Shown here: one piece after another, positions 31,713-60,438 of the stretch
How the letters are laid out: every line of letters starts with the position of its first letter
How positions within the stretch are numbered: position 1 is the stretch's first letter
Source of the DNA: Candidatus Velesiimonas alkalicola
GTDB lineage: Bacteria > Omnitrophota > Gorgyraeia > Velesiimonadales > Velesiimonadaceae
NCBI GenBank assembly: GCA_013626165.1
Contig: NDHX01000006.1
Location: 2,060-66,059 of the forward strand
DNA: 64,000 bases
Reading direction: 5' to 3'
Program-made: the position numbers and the translations under genes
The notes under the pieces: generated by a model
The model's database searches: none
The model's input: the letters and a program-made list of their open reading frames with translations, nothing else
Told to the model about the DNA's origin: nothing

Positions 31713-31733
31713 TATTATTAGCGCACAATAGAC

Positions 31734-32318: not shown

Positions 32319-32911
32319 AATTTCTCTGCACCAAACAATATTACTTTATTTTTTAAGATCTCCTTGGCTACATTATGCTCCTTATCTTTTAACATTGTTA
32401 ATAAATTTGTTGGCTCAGAAACCAAAGGGTTTATTTCGACACCAAAACCTTTTGACAAGGCGACACATTCCATATCAATAATTTCATCATATTTCTTTTT
32501 TGAAGGGATAAGGATAAAAAGATCGATATCGCTTTTTTTAAAGTCGGTCCCTTTAGCCAAAGATCCAAATAGAACAACAGAAAGTAAGTTAAAATCTGTT
32601 TTCTTAGGCAATACCGAAAGAAGCTTTTCAACTACGAAGAAAATTTTATCCCTCTTCTTTAAAAAATCTTCGGCTATCTGATTCGATATTTTAACAAAAC
32701 TCGTTTTGACTTCTGGATTCTTGTAGTTAGGCCTGCAATACTTGCGGTTCGAACGCTGGTCGACAATTATAATATCCTTCTCTTTTAATTCTTCGACCTG
32801 CCTGTATACATAACTATAAGAAATATTTGTTTTCGTTGCTAACTCATTTATTGTAAACTGGGCATATACATCATCATAGAATAGCCTTATTATTTTATCT
32901 TTCATGTTCAA
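32288..32911 (-). CDS. Winged-HTH + minimal nucleotidyltransferase (MNT) protein
   Basis: 207 aa with an N-terminal wHTH and an NTase motif LFGSLAKG...DIDLFIL (GS...DxD). Confidence 0.7.
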   Translation of the reverse strand: MNMKDKIIRLFYDDVYAQFTINELATKTNISYSYVYRQVEELKEKDIIIVDQRSNRKYCRPNYKNPEVKTSFVKISNQIAEDFLKKRDKIFFVVEKLLSVLPKKTDFNLLSVVLFGSLAKGTDFKKSDIDLFILIPSKKKYDEIIDMECVALSKGFGVEINPLVSEPTNLLTMLKDKEHNVAKEILKNKVILFGAEKFWELILEVIK

Positions 32912-33042
32912 CCTCCATTATCACTTGTGGTGATAATATTATCACCAACGCTGATATATGTCAAGCTAAATTTTGAAGAGTGAAATTTTGAAGAGGGCTG
33001 GGAAATATGCGCACGCCCGTTTTGGGTGGGGAATTTCCTTTC

Positions 33043-33503
33043 CGGCTGCTTTTTAGCAGCGGCTAGGGAGCTGATGCAGTCCCGCCGCAGGCGGGGCAAA
33101 AACATCAAAATCGCCCACAAAAAGCTCTTTTCTTTTGAATTTTTTGCCCCCTTTAATTTTTTATTTTTTGAGGAAAAACAAAAATGCCAAACCAAGAACC
33201 TAAAAAGAGTTACAAATTTTTTGCCTCCAAAGTCTTTATCCGGACTTTCGGCTGGCCTTATGCTTCGGCTTTACAATATACTTTATTTGTTCTTTAAGAT
33301 TCAATGAACTTTAGGCACCGCCTGCTTAGGCAGGCTCCCGGTGTGGTGTTTGCACCGTTCAGCTTCGCTGTCGCTCAGCTTCACTCCACGCTCGCTTGGA
33401 CGCTCGCTAAAGTGGTAATGCAATAGTCCGATTCGGCTTTGTGTTGGACGCATTTTGGGTGGCGGCAAAATGCGCCCAACACCCTGCGTCCTCAACCTCG
33501 CAA
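33043..33503. repeat. Inverted copy (B) of the ~450-bp unit that is also present at 37584-38021
   Basis: It holds a diverged reverse complement of the 167-bp miaB-promoter repeat (33043-33200), then cttcggctttacaatatactttatttgttctttaagattcaatgaac, then a GC-rich ~190-bp segment (33315-33503) nearly identical to the reverse complement of 37584-37772. Confidence 0.85.
33315..33503 (+). ncRNA. Candidate structured ncRNA, copy 1 (unknown class), GC-rich with nested stems
   Basis: ~60% GC in a ~35% GC context. Multiple perfect stems (CACCG-CCUGC-UUAG-GCAGG-..-CGGUG; GCAUUUUG/CAAAAUGC inside GUUGG/CCAAC). It is duplicated exactly, and the only ORF is a duplicated composition artefact. Confidence 0.4.
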
Positions 33504-33594
33504 AAACTAAATCCGTTTTCCTTTTTTATTGCGGCCGCCGCCTGAACCGCCGTTTAGAAGAATTTTTAAAGTTTAACATATATGGGACCCTCCC

Positions 33595-34059
33595 TCAAAA
33601 TTTAAATTGAGCCGGAGGAGAATCTTTTTTGATAATCTCTTTAATTAAATCAACAAACTTTTCAGCCATATTCAAGGCATTGCTGGCTTCTGTCTTTGAA
33701 ATAGATATATCAACATCGTATGTAAATATGTTGCGCTTCTTCCTCATCTCGTCAAAACGAGCTACGATGATTTCAAATTCTTTTCCTAAGAAATGCGACA
33801 TAAATTCCACAACGGTTTTGTGCTGATAGCCGTCTGTAGGACGAAAACCTTTTAGGAGCATAAATGCTCTTCCCGCATGCAACATTGCTAAATATGCGAC
33901 TGTATAAGCAATACCTTCATCGATATCCAAATTAGCTTTTGATGTTTTTAAATCTTTAAATGAACGCGAAATAAGCTTTTCGACTGCACGGTAATTGCAT
34001 TTCTGTCTCTTTAATAGCCCTTTATTTAGGTATTCTTCAATAAATTTTTCAAAAGTCAT
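33595..34059 (-). CDS. HEPN-domain protein
   Basis: 154 aa with the R-x4-6-H-like motif region RKKRNIFTYD and a helical bundle. It overlaps the MNT gene. Confidence 0.65.
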   Translation of the reverse strand: MTFEKFIEEYLNKGLLKRQKCNYRAVEKLISRSFKDLKTSKANLDIDEGIAYTVAYLAMLHAGRAFMLLKGFRPTDGYQHKTVVEFMSHFLGKEFEIIVARFDEMRKKRNIFTYDVDISISKTEASNALNMAEKFVDLIKEIIKKDSPPAQFKF

Positions 34060-34621
34060 TTTTATCTCCTACTAAAAATATTTTCGAATCCTCTAAAAGG
34101 TCTGATATGAAGGGATCCTTTTCTCTCTTCTTCTTTATAAAATCTCTCTTCGAATATAAGCTATAATTTATTTCTCTTTTTAGAACTTTTTCTAATTTTC
34201 CTATTCCTGTTACTAATTTATCTTCGTCTACTTTGCCTATTATAAACAAATCAATGTCGCTTTTAGCGTTCTCTTCATTTTTGGCGAACGAACCATAAAT
34301 AAAAGCTGCTTCAACACCTTTTATCTTTTCAAGGATATCTTTTAACAACCCTTTTATGCCGATTGTTTTAAACACCATGCTTTTCATCTCTTCAAATAGC
34401 GGATAAGACTTGTTGAGAAAGAAATAAACGAGATTCCCTTTTCTGGATGAGGCAAAAATGCCAGCTTCTTCCAGATGAAGCAATTCCTTGCGAATCATAC
34501 TTACAGGGATATCGAGAATACGCTCAAGCTCTCTCAGGTAATATTCGCTCTGTGGATTTGTGTAAAATAGCCTAAACAGCGCCTTTCGTGTTTTAGATTT
34601 GAAAACGTTTGTTATATCCAT
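34049..34621 (-). CDS. HTH + minimal nucleotidyltransferase (MNT) protein
   Basis: 190 aa with an NTase motif YGSFAKNE...DIDLFII and an N-terminal HTH. Confidence 0.7.
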   Translation of the reverse strand: MDITNVFKSKTRKALFRLFYTNPQSEYYLRELERILDIPVSMIRKELLHLEEAGIFASSRKGNLVYFFLNKSYPLFEEMKSMVFKTIGIKGLLKDILEKIKGVEAAFIYGSFAKNEENAKSDIDLFIIGKVDEDKLVTGIGKLEKVLKREINYSLYSKRDFIKKKREKDPFISDLLEDSKIFLVGDKNDF

Positions 34622-34737
34622 CTCTTGTAATCCTTTCGTATTACAATTGTAATACTTTTATATAACAATGTCAAACTAAAATTTCACCGTTTTCCTCATT
34701 TATGCTGGTCAAGCAGCATGTATTATAGAAATGCGAT

Positions 34738-36030
34738 TTATATATTTAAAACCTCTCCATCGGTTAGAATCCTGACATTTTTGAAAAGATTAGGATAACT
34801 GTTCGGGTCAAAAGTATGAATCGGAATTAGTATTCTTGGCTTCATTGCTGATGTAAAGGCTTTTAGATCCTCTGGCTTGGCATGCCCGCTTGTATGAATA
34901 TATTCCAGAGTCAGTCTCTTGCTTTTACAAAACGCCCTAAATCCTATGGAAAGATATCCATCCCACATAGAATAAGCTATTGTGGCACCTGCTACATCAA
35001 TGATCTTTTTTAGTATCAAAGGGAAAACAGAATTATCGCGTGCGAGCATAAGAATCCTATTTTTATTTTTGCTAATTTCAGGCATTTCAATCTTTCTTTT
35101 GTTGTAAGCATAGAGCAGGTTTTTATGGCCTGCCTGAGCAAGCGCCTTCGCGTGTGCATCGAGAAATTTAACTCTCACATTTTTCCAATTAAACTGAGGA
35201 ATTTTCCCAGAGACTTGCTTGAGTTTATCCAGAATAAAGGCGGTATAAATATCAATAACAAAGGTTGAATCTGTTTTGAGGCACGCCCTATACGCCGACA
35301 CTATCCGGTCAATATTTTGCGATGAGGCAAATAGAAAGGTTATATTTCTTCTCTCTGATATAATTTCTTCTAGCCGCCTTTCAACGTCTTCCTCAGTTTT
35401 ATACTGGGCATCCTCTCTGCCAAGAGCCGAACCCTCCATAAGCAGACAGTCTATATTTTGAGGTGGTCTCTTGACTATTTGATTAAATAATATTGCTTTT
35501 CTCCCATGGGCCCTGAAATCTCCTGAATAAAATAGCCTCTTGCCTTCTGTCTCAATTAGGAATGCAAGCGCATCAAAGGCAGAATGGTCAACCAGAAAAG
35601 GCGTAACATTAAAATCGCCTATGTTCAACTGCTTTTTATTACTAATCACCTTTGTATTTAGCTTGCCAACTTTGGTGGGAACAAAAATATTTGAAACTTC
35701 AATAAGAAGCTCGGCGCCCTTACTTAAATAAATCGGTATCTCTGGATTTACGTACTGAAGGAAGCCGTAATGATCAAGGTGGGAATGAGAAATCAAGATT
35801 CCATCAATGCCTTTTTTCTCATCCTTAAAAAGCCCTTTTATATCGGGAAGGATCTTCTGCTCTTTAAGCTCTTGAAGGGACTTACCTTTAAGCTGTTTTA
35901 CTTCGAACGGCTGATGGTCACGAGAAACCAAAGGTATGCCAAAATCGACTAGGATTCTATTATTGACTGTCTTTAACTCAACACAACTTCCGCCAATCTC
36001 ATGAGTACCACGATGGATGATTATTTGCAT
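34738..36030 (-). CDS. Metallo-beta-lactamase fold nuclease of the beta-CASP type (RNase J/CPSF/SNM1-like)
   Basis: 430 aa with HxHxDH (SHSHLDHYG), downstream His/Asp motifs (VDHSAF, YSGDFR), and C-terminal TSGHA/IPIHT beta-CASP-like motifs. Confidence 0.7.
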   Translation of the reverse strand: MQIIIHRGTHEIGGSCVELKTVNNRILVDFGIPLVSRDHQPFEVKQLKGKSLQELKEQKILPDIKGLFKDEKKGIDGILISHSHLDHYGFLQYVNPEIPIYLSKGAELLIEVSNIFVPTKVGKLNTKVISNKKQLNIGDFNVTPFLVDHSAFDALAFLIETEGKRLFYSGDFRAHGRKAILFNQIVKRPPQNIDCLLMEGSALGREDAQYKTEEDVERRLEEIISERRNITFLFASSQNIDRIVSAYRACLKTDSTFVIDIYTAFILDKLKQVSGKIPQFNWKNVRVKFLDAHAKALAQAGHKNLLYAYNKRKIEMPEISKNKNRILMLARDNSVFPLILKKIIDVAGATIAYSMWDGYLSIGFRAFCKSKRLTLEYIHTSGHAKPEDLKAFTSAMKPRILIPIHTFDPNSYPNLFKNVRILTDGEVLNI

Positions 36031-36896
36031 TGCTTAATCAAATTCTCCAATTTTATCGACGACACACTACCTATTGGATAATAAGTAATGGCTCTCTCGA
36101 TTTTTTCTTTAAATAAATCCTTAAACCTTCCTTTCAACTGATCGCGGTCAAATCCAAATATTATCAAAGGAACTGTAGGGCATATCTTCTCCGGTTCAGG
36201 TAAGGATATCTGGAATAAATCATTAACTATCTTCGTATAATTGTTATATGCCGCGATGATTTGGCCCTCTTTATCTTTGATTTGGTCAGTATATCTTCTT
36301 ATCTGTTCCACTACTTTTATGTTCTCAACCTTTTCTGCCCATATCTCGCTGTTTGAAAAGTGTTTTACCTCACAGAAGATTAATCTATTCTTTTCTTTTT
36401 CAAATAAGAGTATATCGATTCTATCCTGCAACCTATCTTCTTCTATCGCCTCAAATGAAACTTCGATATCCAAAACCACAACGCTCGAATTTTTCGTTTT
36501 TGAACTCGCGAACGAATGATTTTCATATATTTTAGAAACTCCTTGAGCTTCAACTCCTGAATATAAAGAACAATTTTCTTTTATCCTTTCATAGCCGTCG
36601 GTAAAACTTTGTATTTGTTTCAGATTCCCAAGCATTAGCTCGGTAATATACGCTTCGGGATATTCTTTATATGCCGAAGCATACTTAACGTGCGTTTTAA
36701 ATCCTTCTTTGTCATATGAGAATAATCTGCCACCATAATGATAAAAATCTATTACTTCATTTCGTATTGCCGGAAAAACTTCGCCATTATCCTTAATATC
36801 CGGCAACAATTGTTTATATAAAGGCTCCTCTATCAACTTTTTCTTCAATTCTTCATTCATTGTCCGCTTAAACTTCCACTTCTCTTCCTTGCTCAT
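36021..36896 (-). CDS. Hypothetical protein with a possible PD-(D/E)xK nuclease core
   Basis: 291 aa. The central VVLDIEVSF...DRIDILLFEKEKNRLIFCEVKH resembles a D...D/E-x-K restriction-endonuclease-fold motif. It overlaps the MBL gene by 10 nt and the TPR gene by 4 nt, so the three are translationally coupled. Confidence 0.35.
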   Translation of the reverse strand: MSKEEKWKFKRTMNEELKKKLIEEPLYKQLLPDIKDNGEVFPAIRNEVIDFYHYGGRLFSYDKEGFKTHVKYASAYKEYPEAYITELMLGNLKQIQSFTDGYERIKENCSLYSGVEAQGVSKIYENHSFASSKTKNSSVVVLDIEVSFEAIEEDRLQDRIDILLFEKEKNRLIFCEVKHFSNSEIWAEKVENIKVVEQIRRYTDQIKDKEGQIIAAYNNYTKIVNDLFQISLPEPEKICPTVPLIIFGFDRDQLKGRFKDLFKEKIERAITYYPIGSVSSIKLENLIKQCK

Positions 36897-37410
36897 GTTA
36901 ACCTCTCTGGTTTAATTAGCCTCTTCATAATGTCATCCACGCATCGCAGGGCATCTTTATCATTTGGACAAAGCTCAAGTCCTTTATCAAAAGAAAGTAA
37001 TGCGTCCCAATATCTGCCTTTCTTTTTTAACGCCATGCCCCTGTTAAACCATATGCAGACATTGCGTTGCGCTATTTTAAGCGCTTCCTCAAAACACTCC
37101 ATTGATTCTTGTTCTCTACTCATCCTTAATAAACACGCCCCTTTATTTTCTAGGGCATCAATATTTTTTGGATTAATCTCCAGGGCTTTATTATAGCACT
37201 TTAACTCTTCAGTATTCTTATCAAGAAGAAAAAAGCATATCCCTTACGAAACCACGCCACGTCATCTGATGGATTTAGTTCTATGGCGCGATCATAACAA
37301 GCAACGGCATCCTCGTACATTTCTGCCTTACAGTAAATCTCTGCTGATTCATGCCAGTTAACAGCTTCTTTCATTATTTCTCCAAAAATAAAAAATCCTC
37401 CGCCGGTCAT
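36893..37410 (-). pseudogene. TPR-repeat protein, apparently split into two ORFs (37410-37201 and 37123-36893)
   Basis: Both fragments show TPR consensus (W-LG-Y-A-F-A-P). A ~75-bp gap with a frame change lies between them. Confidence 0.5.
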
Positions 37411-37855: not shown

Positions 37856-38021
37856 TTTTTTTGGCATATTTTTATAAGTTTTTGATTCTTTTGACATTGT
37901 AGTTTCTTTTCTGTTTCTGAAAACAAAAAATTAAAGGGGGCAAAAAGAAAAAAAGAAATTTTTTTGTGGTAACGCCCCGCCGATGGCGGGGGCGATCTTG
38001 ATGTTTTTAAAAAGCAGCCCG
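37856..38021. repeat. 167-bp direct repeat C (copy of the miaB terminator/promoter/first 14 codons)
   Basis: Matches 30053-30219, including atgtcaaaagaatcaaaaacttataaaaatatgccaaaaaaa (MSKESKTYKNMPKK). Confidence 0.9.
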
Positions 38022-38177
38022 CACATCTCTTTCTTGGTAGCAAAATCTATTTTTTCCTAAACGTGCGGGTTTAATTAATCCTTTTCTCTCCCAGATCCCA
38101 AGTGTAGCTGGGCAAACTTTTAAAGACTTGGAGACTATACCGATAGTATAAACTGGTTCTTTATATCCATATTCCAT
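38007..38177 (-). CDS. Small MerR-family HTH protein (56 aa), candidate excisionase/recombination directionality factor
   Basis: MEYGYKEPVYTIGIVSKSLKVCPATLGIWERKGLIKPARLGKNRFCYQERDVRAAF has a MerR/Xis-type HTH. It is below the 60-aa cutoff of the ORF track, and its last codons lie inside repeat C. Confidence 0.45.
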   Translation of the reverse strand: MEYGYKEPVYTIGIVSKSLKVCPATLGIWERKGLIKPARLGKNRFCYQERDVRAAF

Positions 38178-38254: not shown

Positions 38255-38494
38255 TTACTCTACAATGTCTCCAACTACTGGCTCAACCTTTACGCCTTGT
38301 CGTTCCAAATACCTTCTTCCCTTTTCCAAATTCTCCTTTGTGCCACTCAACTCTAAAGTTACTTCTCCTATTTTTTCTGTAACCTTTGCCCTGCGGATAT
38401 TCGGGACTACTTCATACTTCTTTGCCATAGTATAAATCACAGGCTTCTTAATTAGCCTTTGGGGAAATACTAAATGTACCATTTTCTTTGCCAT
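38255..38494 (-). CDS. NIL-domain protein (MetN C-terminal-like small ferredoxin-fold domain)
   Basis: 79 aa with the PNI(R/L) signature region. It sits in a sulfur-carrier gene context. Confidence 0.5.
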   Translation of the reverse strand: MAKKMVHLVFPQRLIKKPVIYTMAKKYEVVPNIRRAKVTEKIGEVTLELSGTKENLEKGRRYLERQGVKVEPVVGDIVE

Positions 38495-38497
38495 AGC

Positions 38498-39313
38498 TTA
38501 CTCCTCCTTTATTTTCTTGAGACTACAAAACTCCTCATAATCTATTAGTTTTGTAACTGTTGGGCTTTCTCCGCAAATTTGGCATTTTGGATCTTTGGGA
38601 ACCTTAACCTGCCGAAAAGAAGAATCCAAAGCATTAAATACTAAAAGCTTCCCTGCTAGAAGATTTCCTATTTCTAAGATATATTTTAGTGCCTCATTTG
38701 CTTGGATTGTGCCAATTATCCCAGCAACTGCCCCCAATATGCCTGCTTCTTGGCAACTTGGCACAAGGCCAGGTAGTGGTGGTTCTGGAAATAAACATCT
38801 ATAACAAGCGCTTTGATGCGGCAATATTGTGATTGCCTGACCGTCAAATCTAAATATGCCTCCATGAGATAATGGCTTACGAGATATGACACAGGCATCA
38901 TTTACCAAATAGCGCGTTGGAAAGTTATCCGAGCCGTCAACAATAATGTCGTAATTCCGAATAATATCCAATATGTTTTCTGAAGTAAGCCTGAGGTTAT
39001 AAGTAATAACTTCCACATCGGGATTTATACCAGTCATTCTCTCCTTTGCGGATTCAACCTTAGTCTTTCCCACGTTTGAATTCGAATGGAGAATCTGTCT
39101 TTGAAGGTTATTAAGTTCAACCTTATCTGAATCTACAATCCCGATCTTACCAATTCCTGCAGAAGCTAAGTATAATGCGCAAGGAGACCCTAATCCACCT
39201 GCACCTATTATTAAGACTTTGGCATTAAGTAATTTCTCTTGGCCTTTTCCGCCTACATTGGGTAGTATTATCTGCCGTGAATATCTTTCAATTTGGTCTT
39301 CGCGTAATTTCAT
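38498..39313 (-). CDS. E1-like adenylyltransferase of the MoeB/ThiF/MoeZ family with C-terminal CxxC zinc motifs
   Basis: 271 aa with a Rossmann ATP-binding GAGGLGS motif and downstream CYRC and CQIC pairs. Confidence 0.85.
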   Translation of the reverse strand: MKLREDQIERYSRQIILPNVGGKGQEKLLNAKVLIIGAGGLGSPCALYLASAGIGKIGIVDSDKVELNNLQRQILHSNSNVGKTKVESAKERMTGINPDVEVITYNLRLTSENILDIIRNYDIIVDGSDNFPTRYLVNDACVISRKPLSHGGIFRFDGQAITILPHQSACYRCLFPEPPLPGLVPSCQEAGILGAVAGIIGTIQANEALKYILEIGNLLAGKLLVFNALDSSFRQVKVPKDPKCQICGESPTVTKLIDYEEFCSLKKIKEE

Positions 39314-39591
39314 TATCTTCCTCCTGCTATTGCTGGAATTATCGAAACTTCATCGCCATCTTCCAGGAGAGTTTGGTCTTGTTGCAGGAATCGTACATCC
39401 TCTTCATTTACATAGATGTTTATAAATCTACGAACCTTACCTGTTTCATCACAAATTCTTCCTTTAATCCCTGGAAAATTTCTCTCTAAATCATCGATTA
39501 ACTCTTTTATGTTTGTGCCATTTGCTTGGATCTCTGACTGGTTTTTAGTTAATTTCTGAAGTGGTGCTGGAACTCTAACTTTAATTGCCAT
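39313..39591 (-). CDS. MoaD/ThiS/CysO-like sulfur-carrier (ubiquitin-fold) protein ending ...AGGR
   Basis: 92 aa with a beta-grasp pattern and a C-terminal Gly-Gly followed by one extra residue. It overlaps the E1 start. Confidence 0.75.
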   Translation of the reverse strand: MAIKVRVPAPLQKLTKNQSEIQANGTNIKELIDDLERNFPGIKGRICDETGKVRRFINIYVNEEDVRFLQQDQTLLEDGDEVSIIPAIAGGR

Positions 39592-39604
39592 CTTTGCAAC
39601 CTCC

Positions 39605-40303
39605 TTATTCCTTTACGTTTTCTTTAAAAGAAGCGATATTAGGTTTAATTTTAATTGGCTTTCCTATCTTCTCTACAACAGCTTCCTGAGTCTTCAAACC
39701 ATTGCCTGTTACGCATACAACAATAGATTCATCTTTAGGTATCTTGCCTTGCTCAATGAGCTTCTTTGTTGCACCTAAAGTCACACCCCCTGCTGTCTCA
39801 GCAAATATTCCCTCTGTTTCTGCTAGAAGTTTTATTGCCTCAACAATTTCATCATCAGTCACGTCTTCAGCATAACCGCCAGACTCCTTTACAGTTCCAA
39901 CTGCATATACACCATCTGCTGGATTCCCAATAGCTAAAGATTTAGCGATTGTGTTCGGCTTAACTGGTCTTATGATATCGGAATCTTCTTTAACGGCAGT
40001 AACTATAGGACAACAGCCTGTGGCTTGAGCCGCATGAATTTCTGTATCAACTTTGTCAATCAATCCTATGGTCTTAAATTCTTTTAACCCTTTCCAGATT
40101 TTGGTGATTAAAGAACCGCCGGCACAGGGAACTATAAAGTGTTGACTAACGATACATTAAGTATACAACTTAATGTATCGTTAGTCAACACATAATCAAC
40201 CTCTAAGGGGCCAAAGCAGTACTCGCATACATAGAGAGGCTTTTTTGGATATGTTCTTTGGCATTCTCTGCACTTTAATCCTTTAACATAACTTATATTT
40301 TCA
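39605..40303 (-). pseudogene. thrC: Threonine synthase (zinc-ribbon-containing type) remnant with an internal deletion and stop
   Basis: The N-terminal zinc ribbon LKCRECQRTYPKKPLYVCEYCFGPLEVDY (40197-40300) runs in-frame into the 53-bp palindrome and a TAG stop. The C-terminal part (QHFIVPCAGGSLITKIWKGL...VVCVTGNGLKTQ, 39605-40138) is in another frame. About 200 aa, including the PLP-lysine region, are missing. No ATG is in frame at the 5' end. Confidence 0.7.
40139..40191. repeat. 53-bp near-perfect palindrome (24-bp arms, 5-nt centre), copy 1
   Basis: gtgttgactaacgatacattaagt-ataca-acttaatgtatcgttagtcaacac. A second copy lies at 58141-58191. Confidence 0.9.
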
Positions 40304-40305
40304 CC

Positions 40306-40542
40306 TCAGGCTTTCTTAATTAACAGTCTCCACTTATTATCTAATTTTTCTACTTTCATGATTTCATGCCCTTCTTCTTTCACAGCCCGAGGAACATTTT
40401 TAATAGGCTCGCCATCATCTAAAATCACCTCTAAAACTTGCCCCTGCTCCATCTCTTCAAGTTTAAGCTTTGTTCTAACAAAGCTGTTAGGACACGCTAC
40501 TTTTTCCAAATTTAAAGTCTCGCGCGGCTTTATAGCATTCAT
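40306..40542 (-). CDS. TusA/SirA-like sulfurtransferase
   Basis: 78 aa with a conserved Cys in a VACPNSF (CPx[P/S]) motif and a two-layer alpha/beta pattern. Confidence 0.65.
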   Translation of the reverse strand: MNAIKPRETLNLEKVACPNSFVRTKLKLEEMEQGQVLEVILDDGEPIKNVPRAVKEEGHEIMKVEKLDNKWRLLIKKA

Positions 40543-41396
40543 CGGACGTACTCCTTATAATTATCCAACCCGACCCTGTCTAAGGTGTCCCTGAACCGCT
40601 CGCCTTGTTTGCCGAATTCTTTGTAAAACTGCAATGTTTTTTCTATAATCTTGAATACCTCTTCCTTTGTTTCCACAAAATCAAATGCCCTTATGCCTAA
40701 TTTCGGGAATTTGCCCATCTTTCCACCTACGGAGATAGTGTAACCATCCTGCCTTTTCTGCCAGGCATTGGTTGGACAAGAGTATACACAGTCACCGCAA
40801 CCTATGCACTTATCTTCATGAAATATAATCTTTTCGTTGTCTTTATCCACCTCTATTGCACCCACTGGGCAAACTTGCGCACATAAACCACAGTAATCGC
40901 AGTTTTCCTTTACGAATCTCTTCTTCAGCCGACCCATTATTCCTAAGTCATTCTCCTGGGGTTTAATACAGGCATTTGGACAGCCGGTAATTCCTATCTT
41001 AAATTTATGTGGGTATCCCCCTATGCCAAAGAATTTTTTGTCAATCTCTCTTGCCAAAAAGAGACAATCTATTAAACCGTGGCTGCACTCTTTGCCTTGA
41101 CAGGCAGTTACAGTCCTTACCCTCTGGCCGCAGGCGCCCATTTCAAGCTCAACCTCAGCAAGTTCTTTTCTTACTTTCTCAAAGTCCTTAAAGTTTATGT
41201 TGGGGATCTCAACACCCTGTCTTGTGGTCAAATGGATATATCCTTTGCCATATTTATTGGCGATTTCTGAAAGTATAACTAATTGTTCAGACTTAACATA
41301 TCCACCCACAACTCGCAGGCGCAGAGAAAATAAATCCTTTTCCTTTTGCTTCATTAAACCACCACTTTTTAATTCTTTTATATTGTATTCAGCCAT
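40539..41396 (-). CDS. Small sulfite/nitrite-reductase-like protein (siroheme/[4Fe-4S] Cys motif) with a C-terminal 2x[4Fe-4S] ferredoxin domain
   Basis: 285 aa with a NIR_SIR-type Cys cluster (TACQGKECSHGLIDC...GCPNAC) and two ferredoxin motifs (CDYCGLCAQVCP, CIGCGDCVYSCP). It is AsrC/Fsr-like and small. Confidence 0.6.
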   Translation of the reverse strand: MAEYNIKELKSGGLMKQKEKDLFSLRLRVVGGYVKSEQLVILSEIANKYGKGYIHLTTRQGVEIPNINFKDFEKVRKELAEVELEMGACGQRVRTVTACQGKECSHGLIDCLFLAREIDKKFFGIGGYPHKFKIGITGCPNACIKPQENDLGIMGRLKKRFVKENCDYCGLCAQVCPVGAIEVDKDNEKIIFHEDKCIGCGDCVYSCPTNAWQKRQDGYTISVGGKMGKFPKLGIRAFDFVETKEEVFKIIEKTLQFYKEFGKQGERFRDTLDRVGLDNYKEYVR

Positions 41397-41408
41397 ATTA
41401 ACTACCTC

Positions 41409-42548
41409 TTACGCTTCGAAATACTGTTCCATAGAAAAATATCTCTCACCTGTGTCAGGTAAGACTACAACTACTCTTTTACCCTCTCCTAAGTCTTTGG
41501 CTACCTTTAATGCTGAATATGCTGCTGCGCCTGCTGATATACCTACGAATAACCCCTCTTCCCTAGCTAGCCTTCTTGCTGTTCTGAATGCATCATTATC
41601 ATCAACCTGAATTATCTCATCAATTATGCCCTGGTTTAAAACATCGGGAATAAAGCCTGCACCAATACCCTGAATCTTATGTGGGCCCAGTTCTTTTCCC
41701 GAAAGAACAGCACTTGCCGCAGGCTCAACTGCAACTATTTTTATCTTCGGATTATTCTTCTTTAAAACCTCACCTACTCCGGTTATCGTTCCTCCTGTGC
41801 CAACTCCCGCAACAAAGGCGTCAATTTTTCCATCTGTAACAATTAGAATTTCTTTTGCAGTCGTCTTCCTGTGAATCTCAGGGTTAGCCTCATTTTTAAA
41901 CTGTTGAGGCATAAAACTATTTGGAATCTTCTTCAGAATCTCCTCCGCTTTTTTAATAGAACCCCTCATCCCTTCGGCCCCAGGAGTAAGCACCACTTCT
42001 GCACCGTAAGATTTAAGAATATATATTCTCTCTAAACTCATTGTCTCGGGCATAGTAAGAATACATCTATAGCCTTTGACCGCTGAAATCATCGCCAGTC
42101 CTATACCAGTATTACCGCTTGTTGGCTCGATTATGGTTGCACCTGGTTTAAGCAAGCCTTTATCTTCAGCATCTTCAATCATTGAAAGGCAGATTCTATC
42201 TTTAACGCTCCCCCCGGGGTTAAAAGACTCTAATTTTGCCAGAATTTCCGCAGAACCTCCTCCTGCAATCTTATTGAATCTTACCATAGGAGTCTGACCT
42301 ATTAATTCTAATACATTTTCTGCTATTCTTTCCGAAAAAGGCAAACCTCCACCCATATAGTAAACGAACTCTAGCCTATCGTTTGGCTTAAGTTGGGTAG
42401 ATTGATACTTATCTTTACCAATGATTTTATCGTTCAATTCTACTGTAACCACTTCAGGCCTCATCTTTTTAGCGTCCAAAAGACCTGATATGCTAATATT
42501 ATTCTTAATCTCTTCTTTTTTTCCATTTAAGAAAATAGTTATAGCCAT
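41409..42548 (-). CDS. Fusion protein: N-terminal ThiS/MoaD-like domain ending GG(G), followed by cysteine synthase (O-acetylserine/O-phosphoserine sulfhydrylase, CysK/CysM)
   Basis: Residues 1-68 form a ThiS beta-grasp ending YYMGGG. Residues ~70-379 are a full CysK/CysM fold-type II PLP enzyme (SVKDR, GIGLAMI, TSGNTG). Confidence 0.8.
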
Positions 42549-42549: not shown

Positions 42550-43851
42550 TTAACTCCTCCTTAAAATTTCTAGTGCTTTACTAATAGCCCGTAAGGTATA
42601 CTTTAAATCTTTTTCTGTATGCGCAGTAGATAAAAAATTTGCTTCAAATCCTGAAGGAGAAAAATAAACTCCTCCTTTTAGCAAGTTGTGGTAGAATCGT
42701 TTAAAGGACTTTAAATCTTGATTTTGTGCGGTCTGATAATCCGTAACATCCTTACCTGTAAAAAATATGCTAAACATAGAACCGATGTGATTGACTTTAA
42801 TCTTTATTTGATATTCTTTGGCTTTTAATTCTAAATACTGGCTCAATTCTTCGGCCTTTTTTTGCAAATCATTATAAGGGTTATTTTCTTTAAGCAACTT
42901 TAAAGTAATTATTCCTGCTGTAACCGCTACGGGATTTCCTGATAATGTGCCTGCCTGATAAACTTCACCTTCCGGAGAAAGATACTGCATTATTTCTTTC
43001 CTTCCTCCAAATGCGCCTACAGGTAAACCTCCTCCGATAATTTTACCTAAACAAGTTAAATCTGCTTTTACGCCAAAATAACCTTGAGCACCGCCATACG
43101 AAAGACGAAAGCCGGTAATCACTTCATCAAAAATAAGAACGATATTATATTTATCAGCTATCTTTCTTAAGCCTTCGAGAAATCCAGGCAAAGGTCTAAT
43201 CACTCCACAATTTGCCTGCACCGGTTCAACAATTATCGCTGCTAAATCTTTTTGAAACTTTTTTGCTGTTTCTTTAGCTCTCTTTATATCGTTATAAGGA
43301 AGTACTATTGTATGTTTAATAAAATCTTTCGGCACACCTGAACTGGCTGGAATACCCAACGTCGCCTGACCTGAACCTGCTTTTACCAAAAGATAATCTA
43401 CGTGACCATGGTATGCGCCTGCAAATTTTATAATCTTATCTTTTTTTGTACAGGCGCGGGCAAGCCTAATTGCGCTCATTACTGCTTCTGTGCCAGAATT
43501 AGTAAGTCTAACCTGGTCTATAGAAGGTATTGCCTCTACAATAAGTTTTGCCAATTCTGTCTCTAATTTTGTCACTGTGCCAAAACTGGTTCCATTTTTT
43601 ATGGTTCGTGATAATGCCTCTATAACCTTCGGATGCGCATGGCCCAAAATCAATGCTCCCCAACTCAGGCAGTAATCAATGAACCCCTTGCCGCATTCTC
43701 CGTAAATTTTTGAACCTTTTGCCTCTTTTACAAAAACAGGCAATCCTCCCACTGCCTGAAATGAACGCACCGGGCTATTTACTCCTCCGGGAATATACCT
43801 TTTGGCTTCACCAAAAAGTTTATGGTTTATAGTTGATAGTTTATGGCTCAT
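42550..43851 (-). CDS. hemL: Glutamate-1-semialdehyde 2,1-aminomutase
   Basis: 433-aa class III aminotransferase with an N-terminal [10 protein letters not shown] signature. Confidence 0.9.
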
Positions 43852-43951
43852 TGACTATCCCGTGATTTAGAAAGTTTACTAAGCATTTTAGCTATGATTT
43901 CAGCCCTCAAGTTTCTCAAAACTAAACATTTATTCTCCTTTTTGCTATAAA

Positions 43952-44932
43952 CTATACACCATCAACCATCAACCATTTCCCAACCTCTTTTCCAAAATAA
44001 CTAATAATGAAATCTGCGCCAGCCCTTTTTATGGAGGTAAGCACCTCAAGAGCTAACTCCTTCTCCTTTGTTTTATCGCCTTCGCTTAACTTTTTTATTG
44101 CGCTATATTCTCCACTCACATTATATGCAGCTATAGGTATATTAAACTTTTCTTTTGCCCTATAGATAATATCTAAATACGCTAATGCTGGCTTAACCAT
44201 AACCATATCTGCACCTTCATCAATATCTTGACCTATCCGTTTTAATGCTTCACTCGGATCACCGAAGTCAAGTTGATAACTCATTCTGTCCCCGAAGCGG
44301 GGAGCTGAATTAAGCGCTTCTCGGAATGGTGCATAAAAATTTGAGGCGTATTTTGCCGAATAGGCAAATATTTTAGTCTTTACGAAATCATTCTTGTCCA
44401 AGGCCTTTCTTATCGCCTTAACCTGGTGAAGCATCATTGCTGAAGGCGCAACAAAATCCGCTCCTGCCTGAGCGTGAGAAACAGCTATTTTAGCTAAAGT
44501 ATCTAAAGTTCCATCAACATCTACATCAAGAACTTCGGCATTTTTTTTCAATATCCTGCAATGACCATAAGGAGTATATCCGCATAAACAAACATCGGTA
44601 ATAATTATTATATCTTTTATTTCTTTTCTGATTGCTCTTACAGTCTTCTGAATAATGCCACCTTCGGCGTAAGCTTCGGTTCCTTTCTTATCTTTTTTAC
44701 GCGGAATTCCAAATAAGAGTATTGCTTTTATATCCAAAACTTTAGTCTCCTTGATATCCTTAAGCAAGTTGTCGATAGATAGCCGATAAACTCCAGGCAT
44801 GGACTTAATGACTTCTTTTTTATTTTTTCCTTCAATAACAAAATAAGGCTGAATCAAATCCGAAGCTACAAGCCTTGTTTCGCTAACCAAATTCCTAATT
44901 ATTTGATTTCTTCTTAATCTATTAAATGCCAT
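43952..44932 (-). CDS. hemB: Porphobilinogen synthase (delta-aminolevulinate dehydratase)
   Basis: 326-aa ALAD TIM-barrel pattern with Cys-rich metal site DVCLCGYTPYGHC. Confidence 0.9.
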   Translation of the reverse strand: MAFNRLRRNQIIRNLVSETRLVASDLIQPYFVIEGKNKKEVIKSMPGVYRLSIDNLLKDIKETKVLDIKAILLFGIPRKKDKKGTEAYAEGGIIQKTVRAIRKEIKDIIIITDVCLCGYTPYGHCRILKKNAEVLDVDVDGTLDTLAKIAVSHAQAGADFVAPSAMMLHQVKAIRKALDKNDFVKTKIFAYSAKYASNFYAPFREALNSAPRFGDRMSYQLDFGDPSEALKRIGQDIDEGADMVMVKPALAYLDIIYRAKEKFNIPIAAYNVSGEYSAIKKLSEGDKTKEKELALEVLTSIKRAGADFIISYFGKEVGKWLMVDGV

Positions 44933-46314
44933 TTTTTTGCCTCTTTTAAGGTTACATCACCAATACATCTAACTTTTACACTTTGGGGTATTTTTTTATA
45001 TCTTCGCTTAAAATTTCTAACCGCAGAGGGGCTGGTAAACATAATCTCATTAAAAGTATTTAACTCTAAGTCTGGCAAATCCTCAGGCATTACATTTTTA
45101 TAAGCGAAACTGGTAGTTACTCTTGCTCCTAATTTTTTGAATGCCTTCTCCAAACCTTTATCCGAAATATCTGAACGGGGTAAAAATATCCTTTTGCCTT
45201 CTATGTCTAAGTTCTTAAATTCCGTAACCAAGCCTTCCGCGGATTCTTTCTTAGGTACCAAATCCGCTATAATTCCAAAGTCTAAGAGTCTATTTTTTGT
45301 AGAATTCCCGATAGCTCCAATCTTTATATTTGAAAGCAACCTTGAATCATAACCTATCGCTTTCAACCTCTTGAAGAAGTACTCTACGCCGTATCGGCTG
45401 GCAAATACTATCCAGTCAAAATTCCTGATATTCTCTACATAATTATCAAATTCCCTATAGTTATATAAGGGCTCGATCTTAATTAAAGGAAGATGAAAAT
45501 AAACGCCTTTATTGAAAAATCTCTCCTGCGACAAACCGGTAAACAAAACCCACTTACCTTTCCTCAGCCAGTTAAATTCCTTCTCTAACTTTGCTATCTT
45601 GCCAACAATAACTATTGCCGGCGGTTTTAAACCTTGCTCTTTGGCCTTTTTCGCAATATTTTTTAAGGTGCTGGTTAAAATTCTCTGGGTTATTAAACTG
45701 GCATCCTGGATTATTGCCACTGGTGTATTCTCATCCCTTCCGCACTTAAGTAACTTGGAAACTATTTCATCCAAATTCTCTATTGCCATATAAAGAACTA
45801 ATGTGCCAATTTTTGCCAGTGAATCCCAATCAAGCAAACTTTCTTTCTTCGTCGGGTCCTCATGACCGGTAACAAAGACACAACTGGAAGCAAGTTTTCT
45901 ATCGGTTAAAGGTATGCCACTTAGACCCGCAGCCGCAACTGCGGCAGTAACCCCCGGGACTACTTCAAATTCTATTTTATTTTTGGTTAAGACCTCAAGT
46001 TCCTGAGAATACCTGCTAAATATTGAGGGATCACCGTTCTTTAGCCTTGCCACCTTCTTTTCTTCTTTGGCCTTCCTGATTAACAAATTATTAATTTTAT
46101 TCTGATGAACTAAAAAACCATTAGCGTAGCGTTTCTTACCTAATTCATCGCAACAGATTAATTCTGCGCCATCTTTTGTATATCCTAAAAGACTCTTATC
46201 TACGAGGTAGTCATAAATAACCACATCCGACTCTTTAAGGATATTAAGTCCTCTTACAGTTATTAAATCAGGCTTACCAGGTCCTGCACCCACTAAATAA
46301 ACTTTGCCTTTCAT
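44914..46314 (-). CDS. cobA: Uroporphyrinogen-III C-methyltransferase fused to uroporphyrinogen-III synthase (CobA/SUMT + HemD)
   Basis: The N-terminus VYLVGAGPGKPDLITVRG belongs to the tetrapyrrole methylase family, and the C-terminal half is HemD-like. ATGA start/stop overlap with hemC. Confidence 0.85.
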   Translation of the reverse strand: MKGKVYLVGAGPGKPDLITVRGLNILKESDVVIYDYLVDKSLLGYTKDGAELICCDELGKKRYANGFLVHQNKINNLLIRKAKEEKKVARLKNGDPSIFSRYSQELEVLTKNKIEFEVVPGVTAAVAAAGLSGIPLTDRKLASSCVFVTGHEDPTKKESLLDWDSLAKIGTLVLYMAIENLDEIVSKLLKCGRDENTPVAIIQDASLITQRILTSTLKNIAKKAKEQGLKPPAIVIVGKIAKLEKEFNWLRKGKWVLFTGLSQERFFNKGVYFHLPLIKIEPLYNYREFDNYVENIRNFDWIVFASRYGVEYFFKRLKAIGYDSRLLSNIKIGAIGNSTKNRLLDFGIIADLVPKKESAEGLVTEFKNLDIEGKRIFLPRSDISDKGLEKAFKKLGARVTTSFAYKNVMPEDLPDLELNTFNEIMFTSPSAVRNFKRRYKKIPQSVKVRCIGDVTLKEAKKWHLID

Positions 46315-46991
46315 AATAAAACCGCCTCCCGGGAATCGATTGCTGAAAGCAAGTTATGCAGATGTAAATCTTCGGCTCTTCTGACAACTGCCAAAGACCC
46401 TTGTAAAGGATGAGGAATAAGGATCTCAAATGGTATCCTTTGGGAAATCCTATCTTCCAGCCCCAACCTAATCAGGCCACAAGCAGCAACCACAATAGCA
46501 TCTAAGTCTGTTTCATCAAGCATCTTTAATCTCTCCCCGATATTACCGCGGATATCCACAATATGAAAATCATCACGATAATTTTTAAGATGGGTTTTTC
46601 TTCTCAAACTACTTGTCCCTATTTTTGCGCCCACCTTCAGTTCATCAAGGGTTAGATTATTCTTTGAAACCAGGGCATCGTAAGGATCAATAGACTTTGT
46701 AATGGCCGCGATAAAAAGTCCAGGCGCCAAATTATCCGGTAAGTCCTTTGCACTGTGGACAGAAAAATCAATCTCACCCCTTAAAAGTGCCTCATCTATT
46801 TCTTTTGTAAAAAAGTCTGTTCCTTCTATTTGCGATATAGGCGTAAACTTATCCTTATCGCCATATGTATCTATACCTATAATCTTTACATTAAGATCAG
46901 GGTAGAATTTCTTTAAATTGTTTACAACCTCTTCTACCTGCTTAAGTGCAAGAGGGCTGGTTCTTGTTCCAACTCTGTAATTCTTTCCCAT
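46311..46991 (-). CDS. hemC: Hydroxymethylbilane synthase (porphobilinogen deaminase), C-terminally short (226 aa)
   Basis: Domains 1-2 are recognisable. The protein ends where domain 3 (with the cofactor-binding Cys) would start, at the overlap with cobA. Confidence 0.75.
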   Translation of the reverse strand: MGKNYRVGTRTSPLALKQVEEVVNNLKKFYPDLNVKIIGIDTYGDKDKFTPISQIEGTDFFTKEIDEALLRGEIDFSVHSAKDLPDNLAPGLFIAAITKSIDPYDALVSKNNLTLDELKVGAKIGTSSLRRKTHLKNYRDDFHIVDIRGNIGERLKMLDETDLDAIVVAACGLIRLGLEDRISQRIPFEILIPHPLQGSLAVVRRAEDLHLHNLLSAIDSREAVLL

Positions 46992-47971
46992 AATCTTTCC
47001 ACCTCTATATCTATAATCTTTTTAGCCTTTTGTGCTTCTCGTTTCTTTATCTTCATATTTTCTTCAATTACAGTATCTAAATCTTCTAAACAAAAAAGCT
47101 CAATACCCATTATCTCTTTTACTAGAGGATCAACGTCTCTTGGTAAAGCAAGGTCAACTATAAGAAGCTCCCGATTAATAAGGCCTGCTAAGGTCTCCTT
47201 TTTAATAATAAAATGTGGGCTTGCTGTAGCGGTTATGACTACATCCGCCATTTTCAAAGACTCTCTTAATCTATCGAATCTTACAGCCACAGCATTAATC
47301 TGACTTGCCAATGCCTTTGCCTTTTCAAAAGATCGACTGGAGATAAAGACCACATTGGGTTTTTCTTTTTTTAGGTACCTCAAAACTAATTCTGTAACCT
47401 TCCCTACTCCAATAATTAGAATGCTCTTGTGCGATAGGTTGCCTAATCGCTTTCTTATAAAATCTATAGCAATGCCTCCTACCGAAATTTTTCCTTCAGA
47501 TATTTTGGTCTCTTTGTGTATCATACTAGCTAAAGTTAGAGCATGATTAAAAATCTTGGTCAAGAACTTATCAGCAAAAGCAATATCTTCTGTTTCAAGA
47601 TATGCATGTTTAACTTGCCCTGAAATTTGTGTCTCACCAAGAATCAACGAATCTAGACCGCAAGTGACCGAAAATAAGTGTCTAACCGCTTCTTCGCCCT
47701 CATATATATAGAGATAAGGTAAAATTTTTTCTATCTCAATCTCATGGTATCGCGAAAGAAAATTTATTATATGGGCTCTTGCAACTTTGAGATTTTCTGT
47801 GCTAGCATAAATCTCCACTCGGTTACAAGTAGAAAGAATAACCGCTCCCTTAAATATTTGCCATTCCCTTAAGAGAGAAAGTGCATCTTTTAACCTCTTT
47901 TTGGAAAAAGAAAGCCTTTCTCTTAATTCAATGGGGCTAAATTTATGATTTGTGCCTACTAGCATCAACAT
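46934..47971 (-). CDS. hemA: Glutamyl-tRNA reductase
   Basis: 345 aa with an N-terminal catalytic domain (GTNHK) and an NADPH-binding domain (GVGKV). The C-terminal dimerisation region is short. Confidence 0.85.
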   Translation of the reverse strand: MLMLVGTNHKFSPIELRERLSFSKKRLKDALSLLREWQIFKGAVILSTCNRVEIYASTENLKVARAHIINFLSRYHEIEIEKILPYLYIYEGEEAVRHLFSVTCGLDSLILGETQISGQVKHAYLETEDIAFADKFLTKIFNHALTLASMIHKETKISEGKISVGGIAIDFIRKRLGNLSHKSILIIGVGKVTELVLRYLKKEKPNVVFISSRSFEKAKALASQINAVAVRFDRLRESLKMADVVITATASPHFIIKKETLAGLINRELLIVDLALPRDVDPLVKEIMGIELFCLEDLDTVIEENMKIKKREAQKAKKIIDIEVERLWERITELEQEPALLHLSR

Positions 47972-47981: not shown

Positions 47982-48365
47982 CTATAGTCTATTGTCTATG
48001 GATTGGGATTTAGAGAGATTGCAAAGCATTTTAGCAATATTCTCGGATTCAGAATAGAGTTCGTTGAATGCCCGCTGGGTTAAGAAATCATTATCTAGGG
48101 CAACAAATAATTGCGTTACCGTCTCATATAGAGAACCAAGAGAAATTTGAATATATCGCTTAAAATCGACTTTACTAAACCGGCTACTCCCTTCTGCAAT
48201 GGCTGACAACGCGGAAATCGCACTTTTTCGAGTATGTTGAGCTAAACCAAATTTCTCTTCTGGTGGATAAGTTGCCGTAAGTTCATAAATCCTTTTCACA
48301 AACTTCCTTGTCTTTTGCCAAACTTCGAGTTTTTCAAACCCATACATTTTTACCTCCTCCATCAA
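47982..48365 (-). CDS. Four-helix-bundle protein (PF05635, '23S rRNA intervening-sequence protein' family)
   Basis: 127 aa in the family pattern (EKL.VWQ...LS.LA.IAEG......F..Y..IS.GS..E). The gene is flanked by inverted TATAGAC-containing short tandem repeats that overlap its start and end. Confidence 0.7.
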   Translation of the reverse strand: MMEEVKMYGFEKLEVWQKTRKFVKRIYELTATYPPEEKFGLAQHTRKSAISALSAIAEGSSRFSKVDFKRYIQISLGSLYETVTQLFVALDNDFLTQRAFNELYSESENIAKMLCNLSKSQSIDNRL

Positions 48366-48389: not shown

Positions 48390-48794
48390 TCAACTATCAG
48401 CCAGTTCGATTTCTTCTTCTGTAATTTCACCATTAACAATTCTAAATGACCTTATGCTTGGATTTTCTTTATCCTTTATTGAAGCAATTACGTAAGAAGC
48501 ATCCGGATAATAGGCTAACTCCACATCATGCGCCGAAGGATAAGCCTCTGTATCAAGATGTGAATGGTATATACCTACCATCTCTAATCCTAAATTACGC
48601 ATTTCTTTAAATACTTTTAATTGTTCTTTCGGGTCCATAAAATAACAAGTAGCCGGATTATCAGAGATATTCTCCATTTGATAAATTTTCTCAATTTTTT
48701 CTTCTTTGCCAGCCAATATTCCGCAAGATTCACGAGGATATTCTCTACGAGAATGTTTTACAATTTGCTCTAATTTATTTTTTTTTATAATCAT
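48390..48794 (-). CDS. JAMM/MPN+ metalloprotease (Mec+/QbsD-like)
   Basis: 134 aa with E-x(n)-HSHLDTEAYPSAHD (the JAMM motif HxHx7Sx2D). Confidence 0.8.
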   Translation of the reverse strand: MIIKKNKLEQIVKHSRREYPRESCGILAGKEEKIEKIYQMENISDNPATCYFMDPKEQLKVFKEMRNLGLEMVGIYHSHLDTEAYPSAHDVELAYYPDASYVIASIKDKENPSIRSFRIVNGEITEEEIELADS

Positions 48795-54679: not shown

Positions 54680-54681
54680 TT

Positions 54682-58115: not shown

Positions 58116-58140
58116 CCTAGAGCGAATTGGTTAGTAAATT

Positions 58141-60408: not shown

Positions 60409-60438
60409 TCCCGGATAATAGACTCGTTGTCGGGCTGA

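Follow-up and report, generated by a model that had tools for sequence, protein, structure and literature searches.

How can a sulfur carrier, whose chemistry depends on a free C-terminal glycine, function when it is translated as the N-terminal part of its presumed client enzyme? This question is raised by a stretch of 64,000 nucleotides (hereafter the window; contig NDHX01000006.1 of assembly GCA_013626165.1, positions 2,060 to 66,059) from Candidatus Velesiimonas alkalicola, a bacterium of the phylum Omnitrophota, in which a ThiS domain and a cysteine synthase of the CysK type are encoded as one protein amid other genes of sulfur metabolism. All coordinates given for this organism are positions in the window, and all the relevant genes lie on its minus strand. 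We propose, with a probability of roughly 70%, that the locus is a sulfate-assimilation operon that would make cysteine through a protein thiocarboxylate, the fused carrier being freed from its precursor by a JAMM protease encoded upstream. This proposal is based on comparison of sequences.

The fusion is composed of two well delimited parts. Residues 8-68 match the Pfam ThiS family (PF02597, E 4.9e-9) and residues 80-365 match PALP (PF00291, E 2e-77), the synthase domain being complete, with the lysine motif for pyridoxal 5'-phosphate (PLP), SVKDR, at residue 114 and SGNTG at residue 144. The N-terminal domain scores 62 bits against the NCBIfam equivalog model thiS (TIGR01683, cutoff 37.45), and in a sequence comparison with the Protein Data Bank (PDB) it is matched over its whole length by the solved ThiS structures 2k5p (E 4e-9) and 1tyg_B (E 2e-7), which end in MGGG and VGGG, the counterpart of the terminal MGGG of the fused domain. 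An AlphaFold2 model of the whole protein has a mean predicted local distance difference test score (pLDDT) of 81. Residues 1-63, with pLDDT 80-92, are modelled as strands 2-7, 10-15, 34-38, 41-43 and 58-63 and a helix at 20-26, and this ββ-α-ββ-β order is, in the model, the ThiS β-grasp pattern. A fold search with the full-length protein returned CysK-type chains only and is therefore uninformative on the ThiS domain, for which the sequence matches to solved ThiS proteins were used instead.

An earlier note on this DNA, made from the sequence alone, had listed the fusion together with a free 92-aa carrier, an E1-like protein, a NIL-domain protein, TusA, a sulfite-reductase-like protein and a JAMM protease, and had named a wrong fold of the first 68 residues or a frameshift at the junction as what would undo its interpretation. 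All of these genes are present where it had placed them, as judged by Pfam and NCBIfam matches and by motifs, and the β-grasp assignment is upheld by the model and by the homology to solved ThiS proteins. The junction reads TAC TAT ATG GGT GGA GGT TTG CCT, in frame and homopolymer-free, so that a homopolymer indel cannot have made the fusion. A frameshift artefact at GGT GGA GGT TTG was ruled out, as more than 100 homologues are in frame as well, and so are five near-identical sequences (P0001-P0005) from several sources.

The note had also called for a database screen of the architecture and of its co-occurrence with JAMM. Searching 5.8 billion proteins, clustered at 90% identity, yielded more than 120 clusters with the fusion architecture, 77-100% identical and nearly all 376-385 aa long. 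All of them match both PF02597 and PF00291 and bear the plain annotation 'cysteine synthase A', and the majority carry an Omnitrophota label. One genome per species was then scanned with the N-terminal 100 residues, which gave 80 loci from about ten phyla; their sources include Omnitrophota, Zixibacteria, Dictyoglomaceae, Sumerlaeota, Ratteibacteria and Saganbacteria/WOR-1, as well as Margulisbacteria, Caldisericota, Endomicrobia and one record labelled Pacearchaeota. An architecture that recurs in so many clusters and loci is neither a product of chance nor an artefact.

What is kept among these homologues, and what is not, bears directly on the question of release. The MGGG motif is invariant in 81 aligned homologues and across the 80 loci, and the longer EFVYYMGGG is invariant in the fusion clusters. 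After MGGG comes either nothing, 1-11 stray residues, a variable linker, or a whole CysK or TusA domain. The linker of the fusions counts 1-18 residues and varies in sequence too; in many of them the junction is GGG-MPFSDR, whose methionine is the first residue of the separate CysK in some split forms. In L045 and L046, a JAMM gene is followed by a free 68-aa ThiS ending in FMGGG and then by a separate CysK, an order that we take to match the mec-cysO-cysM order of Mycobacterium tuberculosis. A free ThiS ending exactly at GGG occurs in L045, L046, L080 and P0145. The Endomicrobia ThiS ends in GGGN, and other tails after GGG are R, IH, IQV, VTRG, SRS, YVSE and YAF, some forms being interrupted by inserted sequence. 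ThiS domains of the same clade are joined through GGG and a linker to TusA in L079 (10001-10438), P0128, P0150 and P0160, one of these records being labelled Pacearchaeota. Because fused proteins are mostly collapsed or fragmentary at 50% clustering, the search of a representative library with ThiS alone provides examples rather than a census.

The second carrier of these loci, which resembles CysO, behaves in the same way. In the relatives it has an invariant SIIPAIAGG followed by 0-10 variable residues, and in seven loci (L044, L047, L052, L061, L065, L073 and L078) it is fused to the N-terminus of the E1, as SIIPAIAGG-xx-EEQIERYSRQI. An invariant Gly-Gly ahead of variable extensions is, at the level of sequence, the signature of a processed precursor. 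An adenylating E1 requires a free carboxylate; with the Gly-Gly embedded before extensions, the carrier would have to be released. The cleavage site is predicted at the G68-L69 bond, at the start of the linker.

A candidate protease is encoded nearby in almost every case. Profile searches with the window proteins gave the consensus order (Rrf2)-CysH-(PiT-type transporter)-JAMM-[hem genes]-ThiS-CysK-sulfite reductase-TusA-ThrC homologue-CysO-like carrier-E1-NIL. JAMM was found in 32 of the 34 loci with at least 7 kb of upstream sequence, and E1 in 41 of the 43 for which the downstream sequence extends to 5.5 kb or more; JAMM and the ThiS start are no more than 200 nt apart in nine loci. The order is JAMM-sulfite reductase-fusion in Saganbacteria and Margulisbacteria, and hemB-hemL-fusion is kept in most Omnitrophota loci. 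Recurrent neighbours belong to sulfur assimilation: CysH, a PiT-type transporter, ATP sulfurylase and an Rrf2 regulator. A minimal locus is L040 from Zixibacteria, which reads Rrf2-CysH-JAMM-[ThiS-CysK]-NirA-type reductase-TusA-E1. A tblastn search of 10 kb on either side found no further ThiS- or MoaD-like sequence, and the N-terminal extension of its TusA protein was rejected as a hidden carrier, having neither Gly-Gly nor similarity to ThiS or MoaD. The fused ThiS is thus the only evident substrate for the E1 and the JAMM of that locus. Together with the invariant MGGG, the split forms and the co-occurrence of JAMM and E1, this lends support, at the sequence level, to the thiocarboxylate route with a JAMM-exposed Gly-Gly that had been suggested for the locus.

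We infer every chemical step of the route, cleavage included, from the domain identities, gene order, conservation and co-occurrence observed. CysH would make sulfite, and the small siroheme sulfite reductase would turn it into sulfide, with cofactor precursors coming from the adjoining hem/cobA genes, while TusA would help to deliver sulfur. The 379-aa ThiS-CysK protein would be a precursor, in which JAMM would hydrolyse G68-L69 to give a 68-residue ThiS ending in GGG and a 311-residue CysK; JAMM would also remove the arginine of the 92-aa carrier. The rhodanese-less E1 would then adenylate the freed glycine carboxylate, and sulfide or a persulfide would convert it to the thiocarboxylate, ThiS-COSH. 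CysK could form the PLP-bound aminoacrylate from O-acetyl- or O-phosphoserine, to which ThiS-COSH would add, and an S-to-N acyl shift would give ThiS-Cys. Finally, hydrolysis of ThiS-Cys by JAMM would free cysteine and recycle the carrier. In the relatives, the CysO-like carrier and a ThrC/MetM-like enzyme could act likewise on O-phosphohomoserine to give homocysteine. The features of the window on which this scheme draws are collected in Table 1.

Table 1 Features of the ThiS-CysK locus (positions in the 64,000-nt window; aa, amino acids)
Feature	Position	Strand	Length, domains and remarks
ThiS-CysK fusion	41409-42548	-	379 aa; Pfam ThiS + PALP
ThiS sulfur-carrier domain	42345-42548	-	residues 1-68; C-terminal YYMGGG
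Linker	42324-42344	-	about residues 69-75, LPFSERI; AlphaFold2 pLDDT 60-69
Cysteine synthase domain	41409-42323	-	residues about 76-379 and stop codon; CysK/O-acetylserine sulfhydrylase A type
Small siroheme/Fe-S sulfite-reductase-like protein	40539-41396	-	285 aa
TusA/SirA-type sulfurtransferase	40306-40542	-	PF01206, E 1.7e-21; Cys-Pro at residue 17
Threonine-synthase homologue remnant (MetM-like)	about 39605-40296	-	between TusA and the 92-aa carrier
CysO/MetO-like free carrier	39313-39591	-	92 aa; ThiS/MoaD family, PF02597, E 2e-18
E1-like adenylyltransferase (MoeB/ThiF/MoeZ family)	38498-39313	-	271 aa; PF00899 (ThiF), E 3e-86
Stand-alone NIL-domain protein	38255-38494	-	79 aa; PF09383, E 4e-16
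JAMM/MPN+ metalloprotease (Mec/HcyD-like)	48390-48794	-	Prok-JAB, E 1e-27
hemA, hemC, cobA(SUMT)-hemD fusion, hemB, hemL	42550-47971	-	tetrapyrrole/precorrin-2 genes
CysH-like (P)APS reductase	59308-60036	-	NF002537, 154.2 bits (cutoff 154)

Several observations weigh against this proposal. Its main weakness, in our judgement, is that a protein thiocarboxylate would have to be the substrate of a CysK-type enzyme. The synthase domain is an ordinary-looking O-acetylserine sulfhydrylase A (OASS-A): it scores 462 bits with the cysK equivalog model TIGR01139 (cutoff 351), shares 62% identity with M. tuberculosis CysK1 (structure 2q3b, template modelling score 0.92), and stays below the cutoffs of both CysM models (TIGR01138, 302 against 394 bits; PRK11761, 288 against 413). 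No chain named CysM is found among the best 60 PDB sequence matches (E 1.6e-118 to 1.2e-80), which have CysK chains on top. Enzymes of the OASS-A class are known to use free sulfide, and we found no report, in the searchable literature, of a CysK-type enzyme using a thiocarboxylate. The likeness to CysO and CysM drawn by the earlier note thus stands for the carrier and falls for the synthase, and even for the carrier it concerns the free 92-aa protein, which matches the M. tuberculosis CysO chain 3dwg_C at E 6e-20 and, by sequence, is the CysO homologue, rather than the fused domain. Moreover, the fused carrier scores above the cutoff of the thiamine ThiS model TIGR01683, the JAMM gene of the window lies 6 kb from the fusion and not next to it, and the apparent split forms L058, L059 and L075 fall at a G-rich junction and are possible sequencing errors. 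A second, free CysK is encoded at 61721-62737, so that the fusion is not the sole possible route to cysteine. The character of the synthase domain would suit a protein that stays intact, with CysK using free sulfide supplied by the neighbouring sulfite reductase, ThiS acting as a non-catalytic docking or regulatory module, and the E1 and JAMM serving the CysO-like carrier only. We consider this unlikely, because a docking module needs no diglycine terminus, whereas here MGGG is invariant beside a variable linker, because free ThiS forms end exactly at GGG, and because L040 has an E1 and a JAMM with no other carrier.

Two further roles can be imagined for the carriers. The match to TIGR01683, and the fact that the nearest solved structures are thiamine ThiS proteins, could indicate that ThiS is the sulfur carrier of thiamine-thiazole synthesis and that the fusion merely reflects cysteine as the source of its sulfur; excerpts of Iyer et al. 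2006 (PMC1779556) place ThiS beside cysteine synthase in Chlorobi. The surroundings make this very unlikely. ThiG was not recognised among the recurrent neighbour families of the 80 loci, in a survey that is non-exhaustive and did not include searches for ThiH or ThiE, and the usual context of a thiamine ThiS, association with ThiG, ThiF and ThiH and no JAB, was not what we found. Instead, Thi4, a thiazole synthase that works independently of ThiS, is encoded in six loci (L038 14947-15771 and five others, after the cluster). Thiamine operons are without JAB according to the same excerpts (PMC1779556), whereas JAMM accompanies the present fusion as described above. Alternatively, the carriers, the E1 and the JAMM might form a ubiquitin-like conjugation and deconjugation system of the SAMP/TtuB kind, with sulfur transfer secondary; the earlier note, too, had considered ubiquitin-like conjugation. 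The best or near-best NCBIfam matches of the 92-aa carrier, the E1 and the JAMM are SAMP1, UbaA and desampylase, and both functions are combined in archaeal SAMPs and in Thermus TtuB. All three matches are under the curated cutoffs, however (SAMP1 53.9 against 60, UbaA 340.8 against 450, desampylase 94.8 against 130 bits), the genes examined include none recognisable as E2- or E3-like, and the conserved neighbouring genes encode metabolic enzymes. Conjugation therefore found no specific support, and we regard it as highly improbable. We thus retain cysteine synthesis through a JAMM-released ThiS thiocarboxylate as our interpretation.

The adjoining genes fit a function in sulfur assimilation. 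The JAMM protein has an intact metal site, Glu22 and HSHx7SxxD at residue 77, and HxHx7SxxD is intact in all 45 JAMM homologues compared; it is predicted to cut ThiS from CysK after G68, to trim the arginine of the 92-aa carrier, which ends in SIIPAIAGG-R, and to free the amino acid from carrier-amino-acid adducts. The E1 has CxxC motifs at residues 170 and 244 and no rhodanese domain, which TusA is predicted to replace. The reductase-like protein matches NIR_SIR_ferr (E 7e-20), NIR_SIR (E 2e-30) and Fer4, with an inserted 2x[4Fe-4S] ferredoxin; its nearest NCBIfam model is AsrC (TIGR02912), under the cutoff, and it is the predicted source of sulfide. In the relatives, the same slot is occupied either by the small ferredoxin-containing type or by a NirA-type enzyme, sometimes fused to TusA. 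The NirA-type enzyme, of about 780 aa, is found in L007 (2333-4681, with a C-terminal TusA domain), L009, L014, L015 and others, and this non-orthologous replacement supports the assignment as a sulfite reductase. The NIL protein is the conserved last gene of the cluster and follows the E1 in most loci; a NIL-ferredoxin open reading frame (ORF) was confirmed in L052, and in L072 a NIL match lies beside a DUF39 gene. DUF39/HcyBio follows the cluster in L011 (132-1340) and three other loci. After the NIL gene of the window comes a MerR-family gene (38007-38177) of 56 aa, against about 105-115 aa in L003, L004, L012 and L017, which may be truncated.

The 6 kb that separate JAMM from the fusion are a packed co-directional run, which the earlier note had missed: a gene for a 23S-rRNA intervening-sequence protein is followed by hemA-hemC-cobA/hemD-hemB-hemL, with gaps of -58 to +100 nt and of 1 nt between hemL and the fusion. 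Pfam, run on the identical genes of L081, recognises GlutR_N, Porphobil_deam, TP_methylase with HEM4, ALAD and Aminotran_3. The products of such genes make uroporphyrinogen III and, via the methyltransferase domain, the precursor of siroheme, which is the cofactor of sulfite reductases; these genes would supply siroheme to the reductase of the operon. The gene between JAMM and hemA (47982-48365) encodes a bAvd-like four-helix protein, a homologue of which sits between hemB and hemL in L029. The CysH-like protein, which barely exceeds the cutoff of its model, is predicted to supply sulfite. Only a PHO4/PiT-family transporter separates CysH from JAMM in the relatives, where CysH is the upstream gene at a distance of about 1 kb. 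An Rrf2 regulator, CysH and this transporter stand just upstream of JAMM in L003 (1620-3832) and in about 25-30 further loci; the last of the three may serve as a sulfate permease. In the window, an ATP-binding cassette (ABC) transporter with a PstS-like binding protein takes the place of the PiT-type transporter.

A second omission of the earlier note concerns the region between TusA and the 92-aa carrier, which holds the remnant of a MetM-like threonine-synthase homologue. It is composed of an N-terminal Zn-ribbon, a palindrome, an in-frame TAG and then about 175 C-terminal residues. About 200 core residues are gone, ATA stands where the relatives have ATG, leaving no in-frame start, and profile matches are confined to PALP positions 184-295 and to positions 212-340 of thrC (TIGR00260). 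The palindrome at the break (40134-40196) is perfect, with arms of 29 nt. In the relatives an intact ThrC homologue of about 408 aa is found immediately upstream of the CysO-like carrier, for example in L003 (12285-13511), while the window has no intact MetM/ThrC synthase beside its CysO/MetO-like carrier. The sequence of the remnant is identical in two other assembly records, and the ends of three short Logan contigs fall immediately ahead of it; we consider the remnant to be real and not a misassembly, although this is not proven. With its ThrC-like enzyme broken, the homocysteine branch is probably inactive in this organism, or else the carrier has another function. The palindrome occurs once more between genes at about 58140-58195, where one arm is matched exactly over 23 nt (chance expectation 0), at the edge of a resistance-nodulation-division (RND) efflux cluster splitting a solute-binding-protein gene from its ABC permease/ATPase genes. 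The repeated palindrome looks like a small mobile element or one similar to repetitive extragenic palindromes (REP-like).

In its parts the proposed route resembles systems already described. A cysteine pathway consisting of CysO, CysM, Mec+ and MoeZ was reportedly described in M. tuberculosis by Burns and colleagues in 2005, and the present loci share with it a GG-ending β-grasp carrier, an E1, a JAMM and a fold-type-II PLP cysteine synthase in one neighbourhood. They differ in that the carrier attached to the synthase is of ThiS type and covalently fused, in that the synthase is of the CysK/OASS-A type, and in that the E1 is without a rhodanese domain, TusA and a sulfite reductase being present instead. 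In Wolinella succinogenes the carrier is said, from work by Krishnamoorthy and Begley in 2011, to be made with an extra C-terminal residue that JAMM removes; here the 'extra' is an entire enzyme of 311 residues. We take the HcyS-HcyD-HcyF-MetY-Sir genes of that organism to correspond to the operons of class 4e in genomic surveys. The features in common with these are a rhodanese-less E1, SirA/TusA, JAB, sulfite reductase and (P)APS (adenosine 5'-phosphosulfate or its 3'-phospho form, PAPS) reductase, whereas the partners here are CysK and a ThrC homologue, and not an O-acetylhomoserine sulfhydrylase. As far as excerpts of Iyer et al. 2006 (PMC1779556) go, operons of classes 4c-4e contain a rhodanese-less E1, SirA/TusA, JAB, sulfite reductase and PAPS reductase, and those of class 4e always pair the rhodanese-less E1 with SirA. 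The same excerpts list fusions of ThiS to ThiG and to sulfite reductase, and of MoaD to MoaE, and in these passages a fusion of ThiS to cysteine synthase is not mentioned. Likewise, we found no described ThiS-CysK or CysO-CysM fusion in the literature searched, which covers few subscription journals.

The ThrC homologue that, in the relatives, directly precedes a CysO/MetO-like carrier ending in GG and extra residues recalls the MetM/MetO/Mec/MoeZ pathway of Streptomyces albulus, from O-phosphohomoserine to homocysteine (Hasebe 2024, as outlined in doi 10.1101/2024.10.14.618325). In the window, by comparison, the ThrC homologue is a pseudogene, and an Rfam scan detected no S-adenosylmethionine (SAM) or other riboswitch, but three tRNAs only. 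A carrier and its partner enzyme also share one chain in M. tuberculosis MoaX, where a cut after Gly82 is needed for activity (PMC4326299), and in the natural MoaD-MoaE fusion DR2607 of Deinococcus, which is cleaved by DRJAMM (PMC8832034). These proteins need the cut after Gly-Gly, made by JAMM in Deinococcus, that is predicted here; the carrier in them is MoaD and not ThiS, the partner MoaE and not a PLP cysteine synthase, and the pathway another one. The widest parallel is with the ubiquitin precursors of eukaryotes, such as polyubiquitin and ubiquitin-ribosomal protein fusions, in which a β-grasp protein with an invariant C-terminal Gly-Gly is followed by variable extensions, ranging from a single residue to an entire protein, and is set free by a protease. 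In our case the released protein would carry sulfur instead of tagging other proteins, and it would have been fused to the very enzyme that it serves.

Other parts of the window contain genes of different character. The free CysK (338 aa) is 60% identical to the fused CysK domain and adjoins a gene resembling cystathionine gamma-synthase/lyase and, from a second gene of this kind, a C-terminal fragment of 102 aa; with a G+C content of 0.48-0.50 at 60100-62737, against about 0.38 elsewhere, this region may be an acquired transsulfuration pair. The efflux cluster (51563-58115) includes OEP, a CusB-like membrane-fusion protein and an AcrB-family pump, and a 321-aa ORF in it has no Pfam match and shares its first ~38 residues and the His-rich HPHRHDEGVHHEH motif with the neighbouring membrane-fusion gene. 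Just downstream of the sulfur cluster, the region 30699-37123 encodes a large serine recombinase (Resolvase and Recombinase), a metallo-β-lactamase-fold protein, a 291-aa ORF without Pfam match and several small unassigned ORFs, and may be a remnant of a mobile element.

The pathway logic and the principle of cleavage are known; what appears to be new is their proposed use in a carrier-enzyme pair of which we found no report and which is widespread in uncultivated phyla. A few cultured bacteria are known to make cysteine and methionine by protein-thiocarboxylate routes, and our work suggests that such routes are the standard in Omnitrophota and in several more phyla that are likewise uncultivated. 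There is also a practical consequence for annotation, since the fusions are labelled 'cysteine synthase A' and the MetM-like genes 'threonine synthase', and both labels would mislead metabolic reconstructions. A bolder view, which we hold only as a speculation and think unlikely to be right, is that several uncultivated phyla make polyproteins in the manner of ubiquitin precursors (ThiS-CysK, ThiS-TusA and CysO-E1), all processed by one JAMM, with cleavage as a regulated switch-on that would give a 1:1 carrier-enzyme pair and let cysteine be made with no need of free sulfide; once released, the carriers might in addition be attached to proteins as tags. If true, this would be a bacterial parallel to the production and maturation of ubiquitin. 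On our interpretation of the locus, a carrier translated within its own client enzyme would be a natural and abundant substrate for bacterial JAMM proteases; the loci compared show that fusions between carriers and their partners have been repeatedly gained and lost around an invariant Gly-Gly.

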